From a virus: a stretch of DNA of 64,000 bases. Positions 11,687 to 44,670 of this stretch are shown here, piece after piece. Location of the stretch: the UHGV virus genome UHGV-1363143, one strand, 5' to 3'. How positions within the stretch are numbered: position 1 is the stretch's first letter; each line of letters opens with the position of its first letter. Below the pieces are notes generated by a model. The model ran no database searches, was not told where the DNA came from, and worked only from the letters and a program-made list of their open reading frames with translations. Both the position numbers and the translations under genes were made by a program.

Positions 11687-11896
11687 TTATATTATTGAAT
11701 ATTTCACTATTTGATTTGTTACATCCGTTTCACATGCTGAACAAACATAGATAGTTTTTTTATTACCCTTAGTTAATTTAATTCCTGATGGTGTATTAGT
11801 TCTTCTTAAAGTAAACACATCATTCTCTTTGAATACTACACCTTTACATTTAGGGCATTGTATATATTCATTTTCATTAAGCATATTGATTGCCAT
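11687..11896 (-). CDS. zinc-ribbon small protein
   Basis: 69 aa with CPKC...CSAC pairs. Confidence 0.4.
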   Translation of the reverse strand: MAINMLNENEYIQCPKCKGVVFKENDVFTLRRTNTPSGIKLTKGNKKTIYVCSACETDVTNQIVKYSII

Positions 11897-11947
11897 TGAA
11901 ACTACCTCTTTTCTCTAAATCTTGATAGCAAAAATAGGGAGGAGCTA

Positions 11948-12703
11948 TTAAGCTCCTTGTGCTTGCTCTTGAGCAGAAACTAACCCTTTTAAGTAATTTA
12001 CAAACTCTGAAATGTTTTCAGGCATTAAATAGTTTGTTGTTGGTAAAGCACCATTTGAGAAAGTATTTATATAATTATCCATATCTGCTTCAACTAATCC
12101 ATATTTCTTTTTGAACTCATCTAAATAAGCAAAATCTTCTTTATGTTCATCTAATGCTTCTTCAGTCCATGGATCTTCATAATTCATTAAATTAAAGAAA
12201 TAAGCTTCATTTTCATCTCTGTATAATTCTAAGCCTATACCAAACATAGTAGCAGCTTTTTTAAGAGCATCAGTATTGGCACCTTTAAAGATATTTTCTT
12301 GCTCAGATTGTCCTCCAACTAAACATTGTGCTCCAGGAGCTGTTTTTGAAATTTGATAAAAGCGTCCAGAATCATCTTGTAGATGAACTGTTAATCTACC
12401 TATTACATGAGCAACTGGTTGTTGTGGTTCATATTCAGGTGAATCAAGATTTACTTTCTTTCCATTTACGTACTTTACTTTTATCATCTTAGGCTCACTT
12501 TGTTGGATAAATCTTTCGATTATATCCCATGACCATCCTGTATACCCAAAAGTAGCGTTTAATTTATCAATAACTGCTTGTCCACTTACATATGTTAAGC
12601 TAGTTTTTCCCGCAGGCTTTTGTTTGTGGATATACTCTGGTAATGGAGTTGCAAGAGCTACTTTTAATTCTTTAGGTGTGTTTATTACTTGTAATTCTGA
12701 CAT
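11948..12703 (-). CDS. Rad52/Sak-like single-strand annealing protein (candidate)
   Basis: TDALKKAATMFGIGLELY resembles the Rad52-family TDALKRAxxxFG motif. Confidence 0.5.
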   Translation of the reverse strand: MSELQVINTPKELKVALATPLPEYIHKQKPAGKTSLTYVSGQAVIDKLNATFGYTGWSWDIIERFIQQSEPKMIKVKYVNGKKVNLDSPEYEPQQPVAHVIGRLTVHLQDDSGRFYQISKTAPGAQCLVGGQSEQENIFKGANTDALKKAATMFGIGLELYRDENEAYFFNLMNYEDPWTEEALDEHKEDFAYLDEFKKKYGLVEADMDNYINTFSNGALPTTNYLMPENISEFVNYLKGLVSAQEQAQGA

Positions 12704-33753: not shown

Positions 33754-34419
33754 CTATTCTAAAGTCCAAGTACCTTTAAATAATGCCATAATAACAATGA
33801 TTTCTGGTCTTATTCCTGGTGACGCTTCAGTTATAGCGAATCCTGGTACACCATCTTTAGAAGTAATGTAACCTGTTGCTTCTGTACCAAACATATCTAC
33901 TGTAAAGAAAACCTTATTACCTGCGATCGCCATTTCTAATGCTTTTGGACCATTTATTGTTTCAGATTTCTTTTTCTTAAACTCTAAATTTACAAAATGA
34001 GAATCTATTGAAGCTGGGAATACAGCATTTTCTGTTACTATAAGTAAAGTCTTACTGTCGATGTCATATCTAATTACATCTCCTTCTTCACTGATAAAAG
34101 TTCCTCTATAACCATTATCAAATTCATCTACCATTTCAATAAAATTATAAGTTAACTCTGATTCATCTACTTTTTCTTTTATATCCTTTAAAATCATTTT
34201 CATGAACTCTGGGAATGAAGATTCTCTGTTTGATTCAACTTCTTCTTTCATTGATTCACTTATTCCATCACAGAATTCTTTCTTATCACAGTTATCACAA
34301 TCACATTCATGTTCTTCTCTATTTGTTTCCTCAGCTGTAATAGCTCCTAGTATCATTTTTATTGCATCTTCCCCTGATATCTCTCTCATTCTTACTTCAC
34401 TCATTTTATATTTCCTCAC
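33754..34419 (-). CDS. hypothetical acidic protein with a CDCDNC Cys cluster
   Basis: 221-aa ORF. Confidence 0.45.
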   Translation of the reverse strand: MRKYKMSEVRMREISGEDAIKMILGAITAEETNREEHECDCDNCDKKEFCDGISESMKEEVESNRESSFPEFMKMILKDIKEKVDESELTYNFIEMVDEFDNGYRGTFISEEGDVIRYDIDSKTLLIVTENAVFPASIDSHFVNLEFKKKKSETINGPKALEMAIAGNKVFFTVDMFGTEATGYITSKDGVPGFAITEASPGIRPEIIVIMALFKGTWTLE

Positions 34420-34894
34420 TTTCGCTTTTTCTCTTTATATCCTTGTCTATCATCAAACATCCAAATAAATGATCTAATTCATGTTGAAATACTACTGCTT
34501 CTAGGTCTTTAAGTAGTTTCTTTACTTTTTGTCCATTTTCATTAATGTACGCTACTTTTAACATCTTGTATCTTCTTGTAAGACTTTTAGTCTCTGGTAT
34601 GGATAAACAAGATTCACTAAAGAAACCTATTTTATTTGGATACATCTTAATGATTTCTGGATTTATGCAAACAGTAATCTCTTCTATATTTCTTGGATTA
34701 ACCATTGCAAAAGCCATCTTATTTACTCCAATTTGTGGAGCTGCTATTCCAAGACTTGTATTTCCTTCACCGAAATGAGCTTTTAATGAAGTAATCAATT
34801 CTTGTTCTTTTTCTACAGATTCAATAGGTTCAGAAATTTTTCTTAACACCTTTAAATCTTCTTCTGATTCAATAGTTAGTATTCTATTATTCAT
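34406..34894 (-). CDS. def: peptide deformylase
   Basis: GIAAPQIG motif 1, ESCLS motif 2, HELDHLFG motif 3. Confidence 0.8.
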   Translation of the reverse strand: MNNRILTIESEEDLKVLRKISEPIESVEKEQELITSLKAHFGEGNTSLGIAAPQIGVNKMAFAMVNPRNIEEITVCINPEIIKMYPNKIGFFSESCLSIPETKSLTRRYKMLKVAYINENGQKVKKLLKDLEAVVFQHELDHLFGCLMIDKDIKRKSESEEI

Positions 34895-35915: not shown

Positions 35916-35990
<75 letters not shown>

Positions 35991-36785
35991 CTGTAGTTCC
36001 ATAATTCCAGCGTCCGTATGGACCTGGAGATCTCCTTCTATCTTAGATAGATGAGCTAATGTAAGCACCACATTTTATAATCCCTTGCATGGATTGGGCA
36101 GGCACCATTATTTTTACATGCATGGTTGCATTGACCTAGCTTACTTTTTGTTCTTTCGGTCTTATTGATTATTACTATCCCACTCGTGAATAGCATATTT
36201 GTTTGAAACAATCGCCTGCACAATGCAAGCCCCAGAAAGAGTTTATCTTTCAAAATTAATGCAAGGTGGGGTGGCGTATCCCACATCTCTAACCATAACA
36301 ATATATGTAGTATAGACTGCCTGTTTCTACTTCTTGCATTTTTATATCTAATTGCTTACTTGAAAAACACGAGCTAATTACATTAGCTACTAAAACTCAT
36401 AAGCATAAATATACCTTCTTATAAGAGTTCCTAATCTATGTCTAAATAAGAAGTATATTAGTTTCATAAGGATATAGATTAGGTTTCACCTTACTTTTTA
36501 TTATTGCTTGAAAAAACCCTAAAAATTACTAAGCAATATATATATTCTTCTCACTTCCGAAACCAGCACTCCATGTCCTTCGAATATATAGTTTTTTTGT
36601 TTCGCTGATCTGGTCCTCTATGCAAAACTTTAAAGGGAAATTTGCTTACCGCCACAGTTCCTTCCTGCTCGTCCATAAGCTATTAAGTAGATAAATTACT
36701 CCTACTTAACTAGTGCGTCTCCAGTGAGCATAGTAAATCAGGCCAATCAAATCAGCTAAATACCAGAGGCTTGAGAGGTTCTATT
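35991..36785 (-). ncRNA. ~0.8-kb ORF-free, GC-enriched structured spacer between tRNA-Asn and tRNA-Thr; candidate large ncRNA (GOLLD/ROOL-like class hypothesis)
   Basis: No credible ORF. The only track ORF, 36056..36301, is Cys/His-poor and has no RBS. GC content is well above that of the coding background. The block is embedded in a co-directional tRNA array. Confidence 0.3.
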
Positions 36786-36859
36786 TGGAGCTCCTACTCA
36801 GAATCGAACTGAGAACAGAAGATTACAAGTCTACCGTTTTACCTTTAAACTATAGGAGC
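36786..36859 (-). tRNA. tRNA-Thr (UGU)
   Basis: Acceptor GCUCCUA/UAGGAGC, T-arm CUCAG-UUCGAUU-CUGAG, anticodon loop CUUGUAA. There is one U-U mismatch in the anticodon stem. CCA encoded. Confidence 0.6.
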
Positions 36860-37015
36860 ATATAATACTTTCGGTGTGCTACAGAAATCTAAGTTTCTGT
36901 TAATAGGCAAGGCTGTCTATATCAGGTATTCAGTAATTATGTACACTTTTAACTGAACCATACTATATATCCCTACACGCTACTCTTAACTATAAGAACA
37001 CCGAAAATATTATAA

Positions 37016-37090
37016 TGGTACTCCATGGGGGACTCGAACCCCCGATACACGATAGAAAGTCGTGTGGCTTAACCACTTGCCGAATGGAGC
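37016..37090 (-). tRNA. tRNA-Glu (UUC), tentative
   Basis: Acceptor GCUCCAU/AUGGAGU, T-arm GGGGG-UUCGAGU-CCCCC, perfect anticodon stem CACGA/UCGUG, loop CUUUCUA. Position 37 is an unusual U. CCA encoded. Confidence 0.55.
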
Positions 37091-37169
37091 ATAATTTGTG
37101 CTATCTCTTTTAGCTTGTACTTCGCCAAGGATGATAGCTATCCTTATCTGTACAAATTACAGATTTCTC

Positions 37170-37240
37170 TGGTGCAGATTGCTGGAATCGAACCAACCCT
37201 TATAATCTTATAGAAAACGCTCTACCTTGAGCTAATCTGC
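37170..37240 (-). tRNA. tRNA-like gene with intact acceptor, D- and T-arms but no foldable canonical anticodon arm
   Basis: Acceptor GCAGAUU/AAUCUGC plus ACCA, D-arm GCUC-AAGGUA-GAGC, T-arm GUUGG-UUCGAUU-CCAGC. The anticodon region UUUUCUAUAAGAUUAUAAGG contains a UAUAAG duplication, and no 5-bp stem with a 7-nt loop can be formed. Confidence 0.4.
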
Positions 37241-38269
37241 ATATTATATTTCCAGAGCTTTCAGATCCTATCTCTGGTACTCAACTTTTGCAGCATTATT
37301 GATTCTCTGCTTATCCACATTCTCTTGAATGTATTGAGTTATGCCTGCCTTGTTTAATGAGTGGCTTATCTCATCTAATAGTACACTACTCTACACCATT
37401 GATTATATCAACCTTGCGGGCTGTTCAGGCTGCTACCCCTTATACGCTCTCCGATATAGAACAATCAAGCTTTTGCGAAGCTATCATGCGCTTCATTCAC
37501 TTTTCAGTGTGAAGCATTAAGACACTTTCATGCACTACGAGGATGAACTTTCGCTTTTATATAGAATTAATATCTGTAAATTCTTAAATATTGTTTTATT
37601 TCCCAAAACATATAGCTTAAATTCATCATTCATTAAATTTTCAAACTGTAGATGTGTCATCCTATCAGCTCGCTTCCCTTTTGAGGAAGTAAATACTGGA
37701 CACCTACATAGCTTTCACTCAACTAAGTTACTAACTGGTAATAAATCATACTCTAGGATACCTCCGTCTCTCAACTTCTAAGGTCCTATTTCATTTTTAT
37801 TACTGGCCAATGCTCTTGCCTGTTAAACTCGAACTACTAACCTTCTGCTATAAATAGTTTATTTCATTAGTTTTGGTGTGTGCTATCTGATTACCAGTCA
37901 GAAACTCCTTCAGAGAGTATATCCCCTACTTTCTTACCAGCGTTGCCCATAAGCGAGCTTTCGCACCTAACTTATAAAACCTTATCCAATAATCGTCTTT
38001 ATCTCTTCCGCCTACTGAATAACATTTAAATTTATGCAGATTGCTTGAATTAACCTAATATTTCAAGGCGAGAATTTGTTAAATTCCCTTTACGCACATC
38101 ACTGTACGCTATTCATGTCAAGCCATGTTTACTTATTTTTTTTATAGAACCTAGTACAGATTCTTGTATGTAATTCCTACCTCTATTACATACTAGGCTC
38201 TTGCCTACCGATGTTTTCCTTATTTAAAACTAAGTACTGAAAAGAAAACTCATAACCAAAAATCGTACT
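37241..38269 (-). ncRNA. ~1.0-kb ORF-free GC-enriched structured spacer between tRNA-like gene and tRNA-Lys; candidate large ncRNA(s)
   Basis: Only a weak 83-aa plus-strand ORF with no RBS falls here. Composition matches the other large spacer and lies within the tRNA operon. Confidence 0.3.
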
Positions 38270-38345
38270 TGGTGAAGGTAGAAGGGTTTGAACCTTCGGC
38301 CCCAGCATTAAAAGTGCTATGCTCTACCAACTGAGCTATACCTTC
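38270..38345 (-). tRNA. tRNA-Lys (UUU)
   Basis: GAAGGUAUAGCUCAGUUGGUAGAGC..., anticodon loop CUUUUAA, T-loop UUCAAAC, CCA encoded. Confidence 0.9.
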
Positions 38346-38352
38346 ATATTAT

Positions 38353-38429
38353 TGGTAGTGGATATAAGAGTCGAACTTATCACCTTCTGCGTATCAGGCA
38401 GATGCTCTAACCAAATGAGCTAATCCACT
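38353..38429 (-). tRNA. tRNA-Ile (GAU)
   Basis: AGUGGAUUAGCUCAUUUGGUUAGAGC..., anticodon loop CUGAUAC, CCA encoded. Confidence 0.9.
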
Positions 38430-38435
38430 ATATTA

Positions 38436-38520
38436 TGGTGGGAACTGATGGAGTCGAACCACCCGAGCTAAAGCAACAGATTTACAGTCTGCCCCGCTAC
38501 CATCTACGGTATAAATTCCC
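38436..38520 (-). tRNA. tRNA-Tyr (GUA), type II with long variable arm
   Basis: Acceptor GGGAAUU/AGUUCCC, anticodon loop CUGUAAA, long variable arm, T-loop UUCGACU, CCA encoded. Confidence 0.8.
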
Positions 38521-38547
38521 GTATTGACATTGTTAATTGGCTAAATT

Positions 38548-38577
38548 ATTATAATTGTAAATGTACTATACTTACAA
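38548..38577 (-). promoter_or_regulatory. candidate sigma-A-type promoter (TTGTAA, 18-nt spacer, TATAAT) reading into tRNA-Tyr/Ile/Lys
   Basis: Minus strand -35 TTGTAA (plus 38572-38577) and -10 TATAAT (plus 38548-38553), located 30-60 nt upstream of tRNA-Tyr. Confidence 0.35.
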
Positions 38578-38614
38578 AGAACTAGATCAATCTTCGGATT
38601 GGTCTTTTTCTTAT

Positions 38615-38701
38615 TGGCAGGGGCTGTAGGATTCGAACCTACGTGGTGTTGTGCACAATGGTTTTGGAGACCACCGCCCTCGACCTCTAGGCAAAACCCC
38701 T
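38615..38701 (-). tRNA. atypical 87-nt tRNA: type II (long variable arm) architecture but anticodon CCA (Trp reading)
   Basis: Acceptor AGGGGUU/AGCCCCU plus G plus CCA, T-arm GUAGG-UUCGAAU-CCUAC, anticodon stem GUGGU/ACCAU with loop CUCCAAA. A 15-nt extra arm (UGUGCACAACACCAC) follows. Alternatively GUGGU pairs with the distal ACCAC. Confidence 0.45.
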
Positions 38702-38836
38702 GTAAATCTCCCGATTAGTTTAAAGACATTTATGGGACTGGTCATTAGAGAGGTCTTATGTATAAATTAAAACGTTATGCATAAATATATTATGTTAACA
38801 TCTATAAAAAGACTACTGATTTGAAAAACTTTTTTA

Positions 38837-38923
38837 TGGCGGAGAGTCTGGGACTCGAACCCAGAAGCCATTACTGACCAACAGTTTTCAAGACTGTCTG
38901 ACTACCAATTATCACAACTCTCC
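38837..38923 (-). tRNA. tRNA-Ser (UGA), type II
   Basis: Acceptor GGAGAGU/ACUCUCC plus G plus CCA, anticodon arm ACAGU-CUUGAAA-ACUGU, long variable arm, T-loop UUCGAGU. Confidence 0.85.
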
Positions 38924-39021
38924 ATGTTTATAGGAGAAAACGAAATAGGTGATAGGAATTGAACCTACACTTACTGCCATCCCTATCTCTAGCTGGCCTT
39001 GCTTCATTCTCCTGTTGCAAC

Positions 39022-39096
39022 TGGCGGAGGTGGAAGGGATTGAACCTTCGAATGATGGAATCAAAATCCATTGCCTTACCACTTGGCGACACCTCT
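39022..39096 (-). tRNA. tRNA-Gln (UUG)
   Basis: AGAGGUGUCGCCAAGUGGUAAGGC, closely matching the bacterial tRNA-Gln D-arm. Anticodon loop UUUUGAU, T-loop UUCAAUC, A1-C72 mismatch, CCA encoded. Confidence 0.8.
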
Positions 39097-39297
39097 ATAT
39101 AAAATGGCAATTTTACCGTTTGCCAAACGTTCTATGGTTTATACAAAAACTCATATCGTAAAATTTAAACGGGCTTAAGTGCCCTAAATTCTGGCATTTC
39201 ACCACGGGTATTTAGCAACCCAGGATTTTTATTATTGAATCTAATAAATTAAGATCCGTTCTAAGCACTGCAAAAAAATCTTAAAAAAATTTCGCTT

Positions 39298-39373
39298 TGG
39301 TCGGAGTTACAGGACTCGAACCTGTGATCTCATGGTCCCAAACCATGCACCTTACCATCTAGGCCAAACTCCG
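39298..39373 (-). tRNA. tRNA-Pro (UGG)
   Basis: CGGAGUUUGGCCUAGAUGGUAAGG..., anticodon loop UUUGGGA, T-loop UUCGAGU, CCA encoded. Confidence 0.9.
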
Positions 39374-39382
39374 ATATATAAA

Positions 39383-39474
39383 TGGCGGAGGACACAGGAT
39401 TCGAACCTGCGGAGGAACTTTCGTCCCTCGAATGCTTAGCAAGCACCTGCCTTAAACCTCTCGGCCAATCCTCC
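39383..39474 (-). tRNA. tRNA-Ser (GCU), type II
   Basis: Acceptor GGAGGAU/GUCCUCC plus G plus CCA, anticodon loop UUGCUAA, long variable arm CGAGGGACGAAAGUUCCUCCG, T-loop UUCGAAU. Confidence 0.85.
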
Positions 39475-39564
39475 ATATTAATAGCTCATTTTGGTCAGTT
39501 GAGCTAAACTGTAGTCTATAAGACTAAAAAATGAACATTGGAATTTAATATTGAATTGAATTAG

Positions 39565-39641
39565 TGGCGACTCACAAGGGGATCGAACCCTCGACCTCTG
39601 GCGTGACAGGCCAGCACTCTAACCATCTGAGCTAGTGAGCC
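39565..39641 (-). tRNA. tRNA-Asp (GUC)
   Basis: GGCUCACUAGCUCAGAUGGUUAGAG..., anticodon loop CUGUCAC, T-loop UUCGAUC, CCA encoded. Confidence 0.9.
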
Positions 39642-39647
39642 ATATTA

Positions 39648-39736
39648 TGGTGTCGTGAGAAGGATTCGAACCTCCAACCACCTGAGTCTTGTTAATGGAG
39701 CTCCCTCAGTGCGTATACCAATTCCGCCACCACGAC
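39648..39736 (-). tRNA. tRNA-like gene with 18-nt anticodon loop (11-nt insertion); anticodon undetermined
   Basis: Acceptor GUCGUGG/UCACGAC plus A plus CCA, D-arm GCG-GAAUUGGUAUA-CGC, T-arm GGAGG-UUCGAAU-CCUUC. A perfect 5-bp stem CUGAG/CUCAG encloses GGAGCUCCAUUAACAAGA. Confidence 0.4.
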
Positions 39737-43665: not shown

Positions 43666-44670
43666 ATGTTAATGTCAAAGAATTCTAAGAAGTATGTTTT
43701 AGTACTTGACTTGGGTAAAGGTGTAGCGAAAGGTTTAGGCTGTGAAATCACAGATAGTATACCTAATCCAGAATCATTAAAAAAATCTATGTTTGAAACA
43801 AAGAGTTATGATTTAAATAAAGGTTATACTGAATTACAAGGAAATTCTCATAAAGTAGATTTCAATGGTAGCTCAGTAATTTTAGGTGAACAAGGCGTAG
43901 ATCGTAGCTTTGAAACTAGTAAAACTACTCCACTTCATCAAATGTGTGCTTACACATTAATTAGCCAATATCTTGAACCTGATACTAAGGATAATGAAAT
44001 ATATCTTGTTCTTGCTTGTCCTATAACAGTATTAAAGAGTGATAAAGCTAAGCAAGAATATAAAAACCTTATTAAGGGTGATGGACCTATATCAATAACT
44101 GTTAATGATAAATATTATGAATTTGAAATTAAAGATATCTTAATTAAGGCTGAAAGTTCAGGAGTATTATATTTAATGCCTGAAGAATTTAAAGATAAAA
44201 AAATTCTAGTGGTAGACTTTGGTGGTCTTAATATGACTAATACTATCTTTACTAATGGAGTATGTGTTAATCCTGAAAATGATAGATTTGCTGAAGAATG
44301 GGGATCTGTTGAATTAATCAATAAAGTAAGTAAACACTTAACAGATTATTCTAAAGGTAATATTGTAGATTTCCAAACTTCTGAAGAAGCTTTAAATAGA
44401 GGTCACTTATTAGAATATGGAAAACCTGATTTAGCTTCTACTGAATATATAGAAAGAGCTAAACAAGAGTTTATAGATGACTCTCTTAAAAAATTAGCTA
44501 GACATAATGTAAGAACAAAGAACTTAGATAAAATAATCTATATTGGAGGAACTAGTTCTTACTTAAAAGACCAAATAAAAGCGTTACCTAATGGTCAAAT
44601 CACAGATAATCCTCAATGGTCTTCCGTAGAAGGCTTATTAAAAATCGCTATTAAAAAATATATTAAATAA
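43666..44670 (+). CDS. parM: actin-like ATPase of the ParM/StbA/Alp family (type II partition NTPase)
   Basis: Phosphate-1-like KYVLVLDLGKG, phosphate-2-like LVVDFGGLNMTNTIF, adenosine-like IIYIGGTSSY. The likely start is ATG at 43672, after the AGGGAGG RBS. Confidence 0.65.
   Translation: MLMSKNSKKYVLVLDLGKGVAKGLGCEITDSIPNPESLKKSMFETKSYDLNKGYTELQGNSHKVDFNGSSVILGEQGVDRSFETSKTTPLHQMCAYTLISQYLEPDTKDNEIYLVLACPITVLKSDKAKQEYKNLIKGDGPISITVNDKYYEFEIKDILIKAESSGVLYLMPEEFKDKKILVVDFGGLNMTNTIFTNGVCVNPENDRFAEEWGSVELINKVSKHLTDYSKGNIVDFQTSEEALNRGHLLEYGKPDLASTEYIERAKQEFIDDSLKKLARHNVRTKNLDKIIYIGGTSSYLKDQIKALPNGQITDNPQWSSVEGLLKIAIKKYIK

Follow-up and report, generated by a model that had tools for sequence, protein, structure and literature searches.

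Textbooks and current reviews assign the class II tRNAs of bacteria to Leu, Ser, Tyr and Sec only. At positions 38615-38701 of the virus genome UHGV-1363143 (the window, in what follows, is the whole stretch of 64,000 nucleotides that we analysed) the minus strand carries a gene outside that list, in which a long variable arm, the mark of class II, occurs together with the CCA anticodon of tryptophan. The locus raises the question of whether such a gene is a real tRNA and, if so, which amino acid it would carry. ARAGORN, which the original prediction had named as a check, calls tRNA-Trp(cca) at this place, 87 nt long and with the anticodon at tRNA position 35; span and anticodon are those that had been proposed from the letters, together with the long extra arm. 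The Rfam model RF00005 matches the gene with 53.4 bits (gathering score 29, E=1.1e-9 in 6 kb) and its alignment has a 13-nt insertion within the variable region, and a family-specific model, R1, described below, finds the gene as well. Read directly, the sequence divides into AGGGGUU-UU-GCCU-AGAGGUCGA-GGGC-G-GUGGU-CUCCAAA-ACCAU-UGUGCACAACACCAC-GUAGG-UUCGAAU-CCUAC-AGCCCCU-G-CCA.

All the stems that the original prediction had folded by hand (acceptor, D-arm, anticodon and T-arm) and the encoded CCA are present in this reading. The 5' strand of the acceptor stem, AGGGGUU (tRNA positions 1-7, 38695-38701), begins with the same five bases as E. coli tRNA-Trp, and its 3' strand, AGCCCCU (38619-38625), is followed by G73 (38618) and by the encoded CCA (38615-38617). 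The D-arm, GCCU-AGAGGUCGA-GGGC (38676-38692), is supported by the Rfam alignment; its stem of 3-4 bp consists of three G-C/C-G pairs plus U13.G22, with a D-loop of class II type that contains G18 and G19. ARAGORN, the sequence and the Rfam alignment agree on the anticodon arm, GUGGU-CUCCAAA-ACCAU (38658-38674, anticodon CCA at 38665-38667), which has a 5-bp stem and a 7-nt loop identical to the loop of E. coli tRNA-Trp. The T-arm, GUAGG-UUCGAAU-CCUAC (38626-38642), is read from the sequence and from the Rfam alignment, and the acceptor/T branch is 7/5, that is, a 7-bp acceptor and a 5-bp T stem. The core bases are intact, namely U8, A14, G15 with C48, G18G19, U33 and the T-loop UUCGAAU. Between the anticodon arm and the T-arm lies the variable region, UGUGCACAACACCAC (38643-38657), with 15 nt against the 4-5 nt expected, and the prediction that this is not a textbook class I bacterial tRNA-Trp was borne out. 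The analysis confirms a real, intact-looking phage tRNA gene.

The variable region folds as U-GUG-CACAA-CAC-CAC, with one unpaired nucleotide, a 3-bp GUG/CAC stem, a 5-nt loop and three further unpaired nucleotides. The pairs of this stem have a probability of about 0.03 in the thermodynamic ensemble, and the stem is predicted to be barely stable by itself. A competing, non-tRNA fold had also been proposed, in which GUGGU pairs with the distal ACCAC. This pairing does exist, with an energy of -24.3 kcal/mol for the fold that contains it versus -24.9 kcal/mol for the cloverleaf, but it is a minor one, with a pair probability of about 0.06 versus about 0.9 for the anticodon stem. Thermodynamic folding by itself gives the cloverleaf no support against shuffled sequences (z=-0.65), as is usual for tRNAs. 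Since it does not separate the gene from shuffles and gives little weight to the 3-bp stem, it is the comparison with relatives, in which the homologous stem covaries, that argues for an arm.

The identity of bacterial tRNA-Trp has been ascribed to G73, the major determinant, the CCA anticodon and the first acceptor pair A1-U72; in B. subtilis G2-C71, G3-C70 and G4-C69 are strong determinants and G5-C68 a minor one, and U31-A39 is a predicted bacterial determinant (PMC9976931). The window tRNA has G73, A1-U72, G2-C71, G3-C70, G4-C69, G5-C68, U31-A39 and the CUCCAAA loop, and thus carries the complete published set. A comparison with the identity elements of Trp, Leu and Sec had been suggested by the original prediction; once made, it matched the Trp set and neither of the other two. 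We also compared the gene with E. coli tRNA-Trp, a class I tRNA whose reference sequence (trpT) was verified against 5,426 genomes. The acceptor end AGGGG/CCCCU-G is identical in both, and they share A1-U72 to G5-C68, G73, the CUCCAAA loop, the GGU/ACC inner pairs of the anticodon stem and the 7/5 branch. On the other hand, the variable region has 15 nt in the window tRNA and 5 nt in that of E. coli, and the D-arm is of class II type (GCC/GGC, with a longer D-loop) where E. coli has GUUC/GAGC.

Relatives were sought in IMG/VR with the pattern CTCCAAA(N18-32)GGTTCRAWTCC. It returned at least 119 loci, in which ARAGORN calls at least 75 CCA tRNAs of at least 80 nt, at least 60 of them distinct. 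Applied to one genome per bacterial or archaeal species, the same pattern yielded long-arm CCA tRNAs in 4 of 120 matches, three of them on MAG contigs that carry several tRNAs, while most of the pattern matches were not tRNAs and are due to chance; no organism whose sole tRNA-Trp is class II came out of this one-genome-per-species scan. In viral contigs, where they make up 75 of the 119 IMG/VR matches listed, as against these 4 of 120, long-arm tRNA-Trp genes are thus strongly enriched. When metagenomes were scanned with the D-arm motif taken from the closest members, 16 more loci appeared, several on contigs of 137-518 kb, and the family set comprised at least 74 distinct sequences after the metagenome and genome scans had been added. 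The window gene's own subfamily was found in the metagenome scan; an exact-pattern scan of IMG/VR for it gave nothing.

The extra arm of the family usually has 3-4 bp and a GNRA tetraloop, and its commonest layout has one unpaired nucleotide before the stem and three after it. Stems of 47 distinct sequences occur, most of them capped by a GNRA tetraloop, and the variable regions fold with a mean of -2.67 kcal/mol versus -0.43 kcal/mol for their shuffles (z=-24.7). In an alignment of the 13 sequences of the closest subfamily, all four pairs of the arm vary on both sides with 94% of the cells paired; over the whole cloverleaf of the same alignment 93.8% of the cells are paired versus 71.3% in shuffles, and the GCC/GGC D stem is invariant. 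These comparisons point clearly to selection on the arm, which would be an inherited trait of a tRNA-Trp lineage found mostly in viral contigs. A covariance model (R1), built from 16 other members with the window sequence left out, gives the window gene 86.6 bits (E=1.4e-22) and the next best window tRNA 54.2 bits; the gene ranks 9th of the 56 matches of this model in 958 kb, and it is about 76% identical to its nearest non-identical relative. By these comparisons of sequence it belongs to the long-arm tRNA-Trp family. Its arm has the register (1 nt, stem, loop, 3 nt) that is commonest there and pairs at three of the four homologous positions; the fourth is a C.A mismatch, and a pentaloop takes the place of the GNRA tetraloop, which makes the window gene a slightly degenerate member.

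One member of the family has been in the databases since 2012, in the genome of a cultured phage. The Caulobacter phage CcrColossus (JX100810, 59240-59325) has an 86-nt gene annotated as tRNA-Trp, the sole one in its annotated tRNA cluster, with the arm C-GGC-GCAA-GCC-UUC. The genome paper of that phage predicted its tRNAs with tRNAscan-SE 1.21 and Rfam and lists them with no comment on structure. In the searchable literature we came across no account of a class II tRNA-Trp, and the family is present in the databases without comment. The window gene shares with the CcrColossus type G73, CCA, the class II D-arm and an arm of 1 nt, a 3-4 bp stem, a loop and 3 nt; it differs from the other long-arm tRNA-Trp genes in its pentaloop, in having one pair fewer in the arm, and in host and phage lineage. 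Two further observations concern other phages: the tRNA-Trp of Brevundimonas jumbo phages measures 82 nt, 8 nt of which form the variable loop, and the Caulobacter phage CcrBL9 (L123, 2496-2582) has an 87-nt class II tRNA-Lys(CUU) with U73.

The arm geometry of the window tRNA (1 nt, about 3 bp, 3 nt on the 3' side) and its class II D-arm resemble those of bacterial and phage tRNA-Tyr, whereas its G73 and CCA contrast with the A73 and GUA of that tRNA. The enzymes that charge tRNA-Tyr and tRNA-Trp, TyrRS and TrpRS, are paralogues within synthetase class Ic. Long arms together with an anticodon that is not that of Leu, Ser or Tyr are also seen in allo-tRNAs, which have an 8/4 or 9/3 acceptor/T branch and Ser identity (Mukai et al., PMC5389517), and in the nev-tRNAs of nematodes, which are charged with Leu (Hamashima et al., PMC3333845). 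In both of these the identity contradicts the anticodon, whereas the window tRNA has a 7/5 branch and an identity that agrees with its anticodon. Because of this agreement, the body plan of tRNAs apparently passes between isotypes more freely than most accounts allow. The class II tRNA-Trp family, which is large, structurally conserved and borne mostly on viral contigs, provides a test set by nature of whether a class II body is accepted by TrpRS, EF-Tu and the ribosome. It might also serve genetic code engineering as an orthogonal scaffold, and it opens a testable line of inquiry into why phages have tRNA genes of their own.

We think it probable that the gene encodes a functional phage elongator tRNA-Trp on a class II body, charged with Trp by the host TrpRS and reading UGG. 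It would be transcribed together with the neighbouring tRNAs of its cluster and trimmed to the encoded CCA end; the host TrpRS would then attach Trp on reading G73, A1-U72, G2-C71, G3-C70, G4-C69 and the anticodon CCA, and the charged tRNA would decode UGG in a phage with the standard code. The extra arm would be a short hairpin with the arm geometry of bacterial tRNA-Tyr, and would not point to Leu, Ser or Sec identity. Having observed the fold, the identity elements, the family membership and the covariation of the arm, we infer charging by TrpRS and use in translation. Several points speak against this: the gene is absent from this site in a phage of about 90% identity, the stem of its arm is reduced to 3 bp, it shares elements with the Ser identity set of E. 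coli, so that some serylation may occur, and seven of 94 loci keep both a short and a long CCA tRNA.

The coding content of the window is that of a large phage. It is about 30% G+C and densely coding, with genes for topoisomerase II subunits, helicases, a RecA-like protein, a ClpX-like ATPase, a peptide deformylase and an endolysin; the deformylase lies at 34406-34894 (minus strand), and a protein with an actin-like (ALP_N) domain is encoded at 43666-44670 (plus strand). The endolysin combines SH3 and glucosaminidase domains, which suggests a Gram-positive host. No close cultured phage was found: the 87-nt gene gave nothing in blastn against GenBank phages, a megablast of the cluster against the same phages gave only short matches to other tRNAs, and a protein search for close GenBank phages gave only matches below 30% identity. 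No TrpRS was found among the 20 window ORFs that were scanned. UGG occurs 112 times in 16,480 codons, a Trp usage of 0.68%. The 70 ORFs of at least 100 aa in 1-64000 end in TAA (49), TAG (20) and TGA (1). An alternative code with TGA as sense was considered and set aside, as it would add only N-terminal extensions and spurious ORFs, and the standard code was kept. A missense or recoding tRNA, one of the possibilities raised in the original prediction, does not fit identity elements that agree with the anticodon in a phage with the standard code; for annotation, the label tRNA-Trp is correct for such genes, which are not evidence of recoding.

The arm could also serve an end other than decoding. 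A Trp-charged tRNA might in this way be a poor substrate for a tRNA-Trp-directed nuclease of the host or of a rival, serve as a decoy, or alter the action of modification enzymes, and although we consider this unlikely, it would account for an arm under selection, with covariation and conserved geometry, and for the concentration of the family in viruses noted above. It would also suit the side-by-side presence of class I and class II CCA tRNAs, and passages in three papers (PMC10264068, PMC11464382, PMC11555353) describe phage tRNAs that counter tRNA-targeting defences. On the other side, the loop is the canonical CUCCAAA, so the published route of evasion, mutation of the anticodon loop, is not used; the analysis linked no nuclease or defence gene to the Trp gene, and nothing in the window speaks directly to this possibility. 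The pairs of CCA tRNAs were seen at seven of 94 loci, where the short form measures 72-77 nt and the long one 83-89 nt (L100, L101, L126, L009/L084, L109, L125); in L100 (4444-4604) and L101 (5128-5290) the two are only 6 nt apart. Their co-occurrence hints that the two CCA forms may not be fully redundant. Among the matches listed for the loci with long-arm Trp (L001-L119), 56 of 572 tRNAs of other class I isotypes also have 80 nt or more, and the long versions, again among the matches listed, include His (16/39), Lys (8/60), Asn (7/31), Cys (6/22) and Met (6/43). As a wider and equally doubtful conjecture, tRNA-Trp, and apparently also the tRNAs for His, Asn, Cys, Lys and Met, might be maintained by phages as class II lineages of their own, in which the arm shields the tRNA from defence nucleases, modification enzymes or other host factors with a class I substrate, or gives a controlled dual Trp/Ser identity. 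If this were true, the arm would be a device for counter-defence or reprogramming and not a neutral relic.

What SerRS recognises is a long arm and G73, whatever the anticodon, and the window tRNA might accordingly be imagined as a missense tRNA that accepts Ser and places it at UGG, or as one with dual Trp/Ser identity. G73, G2-C71, C11-G24 and the long variable region are all present and all belong to the Ser identity set of E. coli, allo-tRNAs and nev-tRNAs are a precedent for long-arm tRNAs with non-cognate anticodons, and a tRNA-Ser(CGA) is one substitution away from CCA. We regard this reading as very unlikely, on the basis of a survey of distinct class II tRNAs from the loci analysed (44 phage tRNA-Leu, 24 tRNA-Tyr and 44 phage tRNA-Ser). 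The tRNA-Ser genes have G73 in 41/44, so that this discriminator is common to Ser and Trp, but they have G1-C72 in 41/44, G2-C71 in 42/44 and A3-U70 in 34/44; the window tRNA has only G2-C71 from this signature, with A-U at 1-72 and G-C at 3-70. Their arms have stems of 5-7 bp and mostly a single unpaired nucleotide before the T-stem, versus 3 bp and three unpaired nucleotides in the window tRNA. Leu tRNAs have A73 in 44/44, stems of 3-5 bp and mostly two unpaired nucleotides 3' of the arm, and Tyr tRNAs have A73 and the anticodon GUA in 24/24, stems of about 3 bp and mostly three unpaired nucleotides 3' of the arm. By this survey the window tRNA is not Leu-like, nor Ser-like in acceptor stem or arm geometry, and is Tyr-like in the shape of the arm only. 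The family as a whole points the same way against Ser. G73 is found in 66/74 distinct members, the 1-72 pair is A-U or G.U in 51/74 and G-C in only 5/74, and the 2-71 pair is C-G in 27/74, C2-G71 being an antideterminant for the SerRS of E. coli (PMC9976931). Further, the two tRNA-Ser genes of the window score 54 and 43 bits on the family model, well below the Trp gene, and UGG is a codon of the phage's own genes, which follow the standard code.

There is likewise little chance that the gene is a decaying or non-functional tRNA carried in a mobile tRNA block, a possibility that its neighbourhood brings to mind. ARAGORN finds 14 tRNA genes on the minus strand at 35926-39736. Six of them (Gln, Ser-tga, Trp, Tyr-gta, Ile and Lys) form a 1.4-kb block at 37800-39165 that is missing from IMGVR_UViG_3300014583_000001, a 241-kb jumbo-phage contig with DNA about 90% identical to ours, in which the matching site holds six tRNAs with no Trp and a tRNA-Met in place of the block. 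Queries with the neighbouring endolysin and peptide deformylase both led only to this contig. Since the block is absent there, the Trp gene is part of an accessory block, and since the matching site lacks the gene, it is dispensable in that phage. Decay would also agree with the arm stem of three pairs out of four, with the pentaloop where relatives have a GNRA tetraloop, and with two other tRNA-like genes of the cluster whose anticodon arms are defective. Against it, the remaining stems pair without a flaw and the conserved core is intact, the Rfam score exceeds those of four other tRNA genes of the cluster, and the gene stands high among the matches of the family model. In addition, a 3.4-kb contig from a separate assembly (L131) is 99.94% identical over 3.15 kb and carries an identical tRNA. 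In the 241-kb contig (L120) the segment that replaces 37800-39165 is 11722-12327, about 600 bp with the tRNA-Met, and the tRNA cluster is modular.

That a Leu-, Tyr- or Sec-type scaffold acquired its anticodon recently is scarcely credible, for although the class II D-arm, the long variable region and the Tyr-like arm geometry would fit, the acceptor is of Trp type with G73 in place of the A73 of every Leu and Tyr tRNA surveyed, the 7/5 branch excludes Sec and allo-tRNA architecture, and the nearest neighbours with the anticodon masked are all CCA tRNAs. The candidates were also considered one by one. tRNA-Leu is out by G73, which is an antideterminant for LeuRS (PMC9976931), tRNA-Tyr by G73 and CCA, and tRNA-Sec and allo-tRNA (8/5, 9/4, 8/4 or 9/3 branch, UCA for Sec) by the 7/5 branch and CCA. 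A recent duplication of another window tRNA was rejected at a top identity of 66%, to Ser-gct, and a recent copy of a Leu, Ser or Tyr tRNA was rejected because masking the anticodon still left long-arm CCA tRNAs in all 18 of the nearest places among 791 tRNAs. The Leu-type scaffold with a changed anticodon had been put forward in the original prediction, and falls with these results; the insertion it thought necessary from CAA to CCA is in fact a substitution.

The immediate surroundings of the Trp gene contain several candidate signals. A hairpin at 38584-38605, 10 nt downstream of the 3' end of the tRNA, has a terminator score on the plus strand and a weaker U-rich tail on the minus strand, and probably marks the end of a Ser(tga)-Trp transcription unit. 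After it, and ahead of tRNA-Tyr, comes a promoter-like site on the minus strand (38577-38548). The plus strand has its own, near-consensus promoter-like site in 38524-38613, TTGACA-17-TATTAT with 11/12 matches and antisense to all the tRNAs, and about 30 nt past it there is a 9-bp hairpin with a T-run. Site and hairpin may define an RNA of about 50 nt in the gap that separates tRNA-Tyr from tRNA-Trp, or they may reflect chance or a bidirectional terminator.

Other elements of the cluster were identified on the minus strand. A skipping-rope RNA (RF02924, 58.2 bits versus a gathering score of 36.7) lies at 36258-36340 between tRNA-Thr and tRNA-Asn, and a full-length GOLLD RNA (RF02032, 171.8 bits, E=1.5e-47) lies at 37263-37708 between tRNA-Lys and a degenerate tRNA-like element. 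The latter, directly 3' of the GOLLD RNA at 37170-37240, has 71 nt and is called tRNA-Tyr(ata) by ARAGORN; it has good acceptor, D and T arms and lacks a proper anticodon stem (34.5 bits with Rfam), and ARAGORN makes no such call in L120. The cluster had been thought to lack any tRNA-Leu, which does not hold, since ARAGORN calls a tRNA-Leu(gag) at 39648-39736, though with an irregular anticodon arm. This gene has a Leu-like D-arm and A73, aligns to Rfam in a class I-like manner (40.4 bits), and has a short variable region and a CUGA/UCAG stem that encloses about 20 nt versus the 9 expected, which could reflect either extra nucleotides inserted into the anticodon loop or a defect of the gene.
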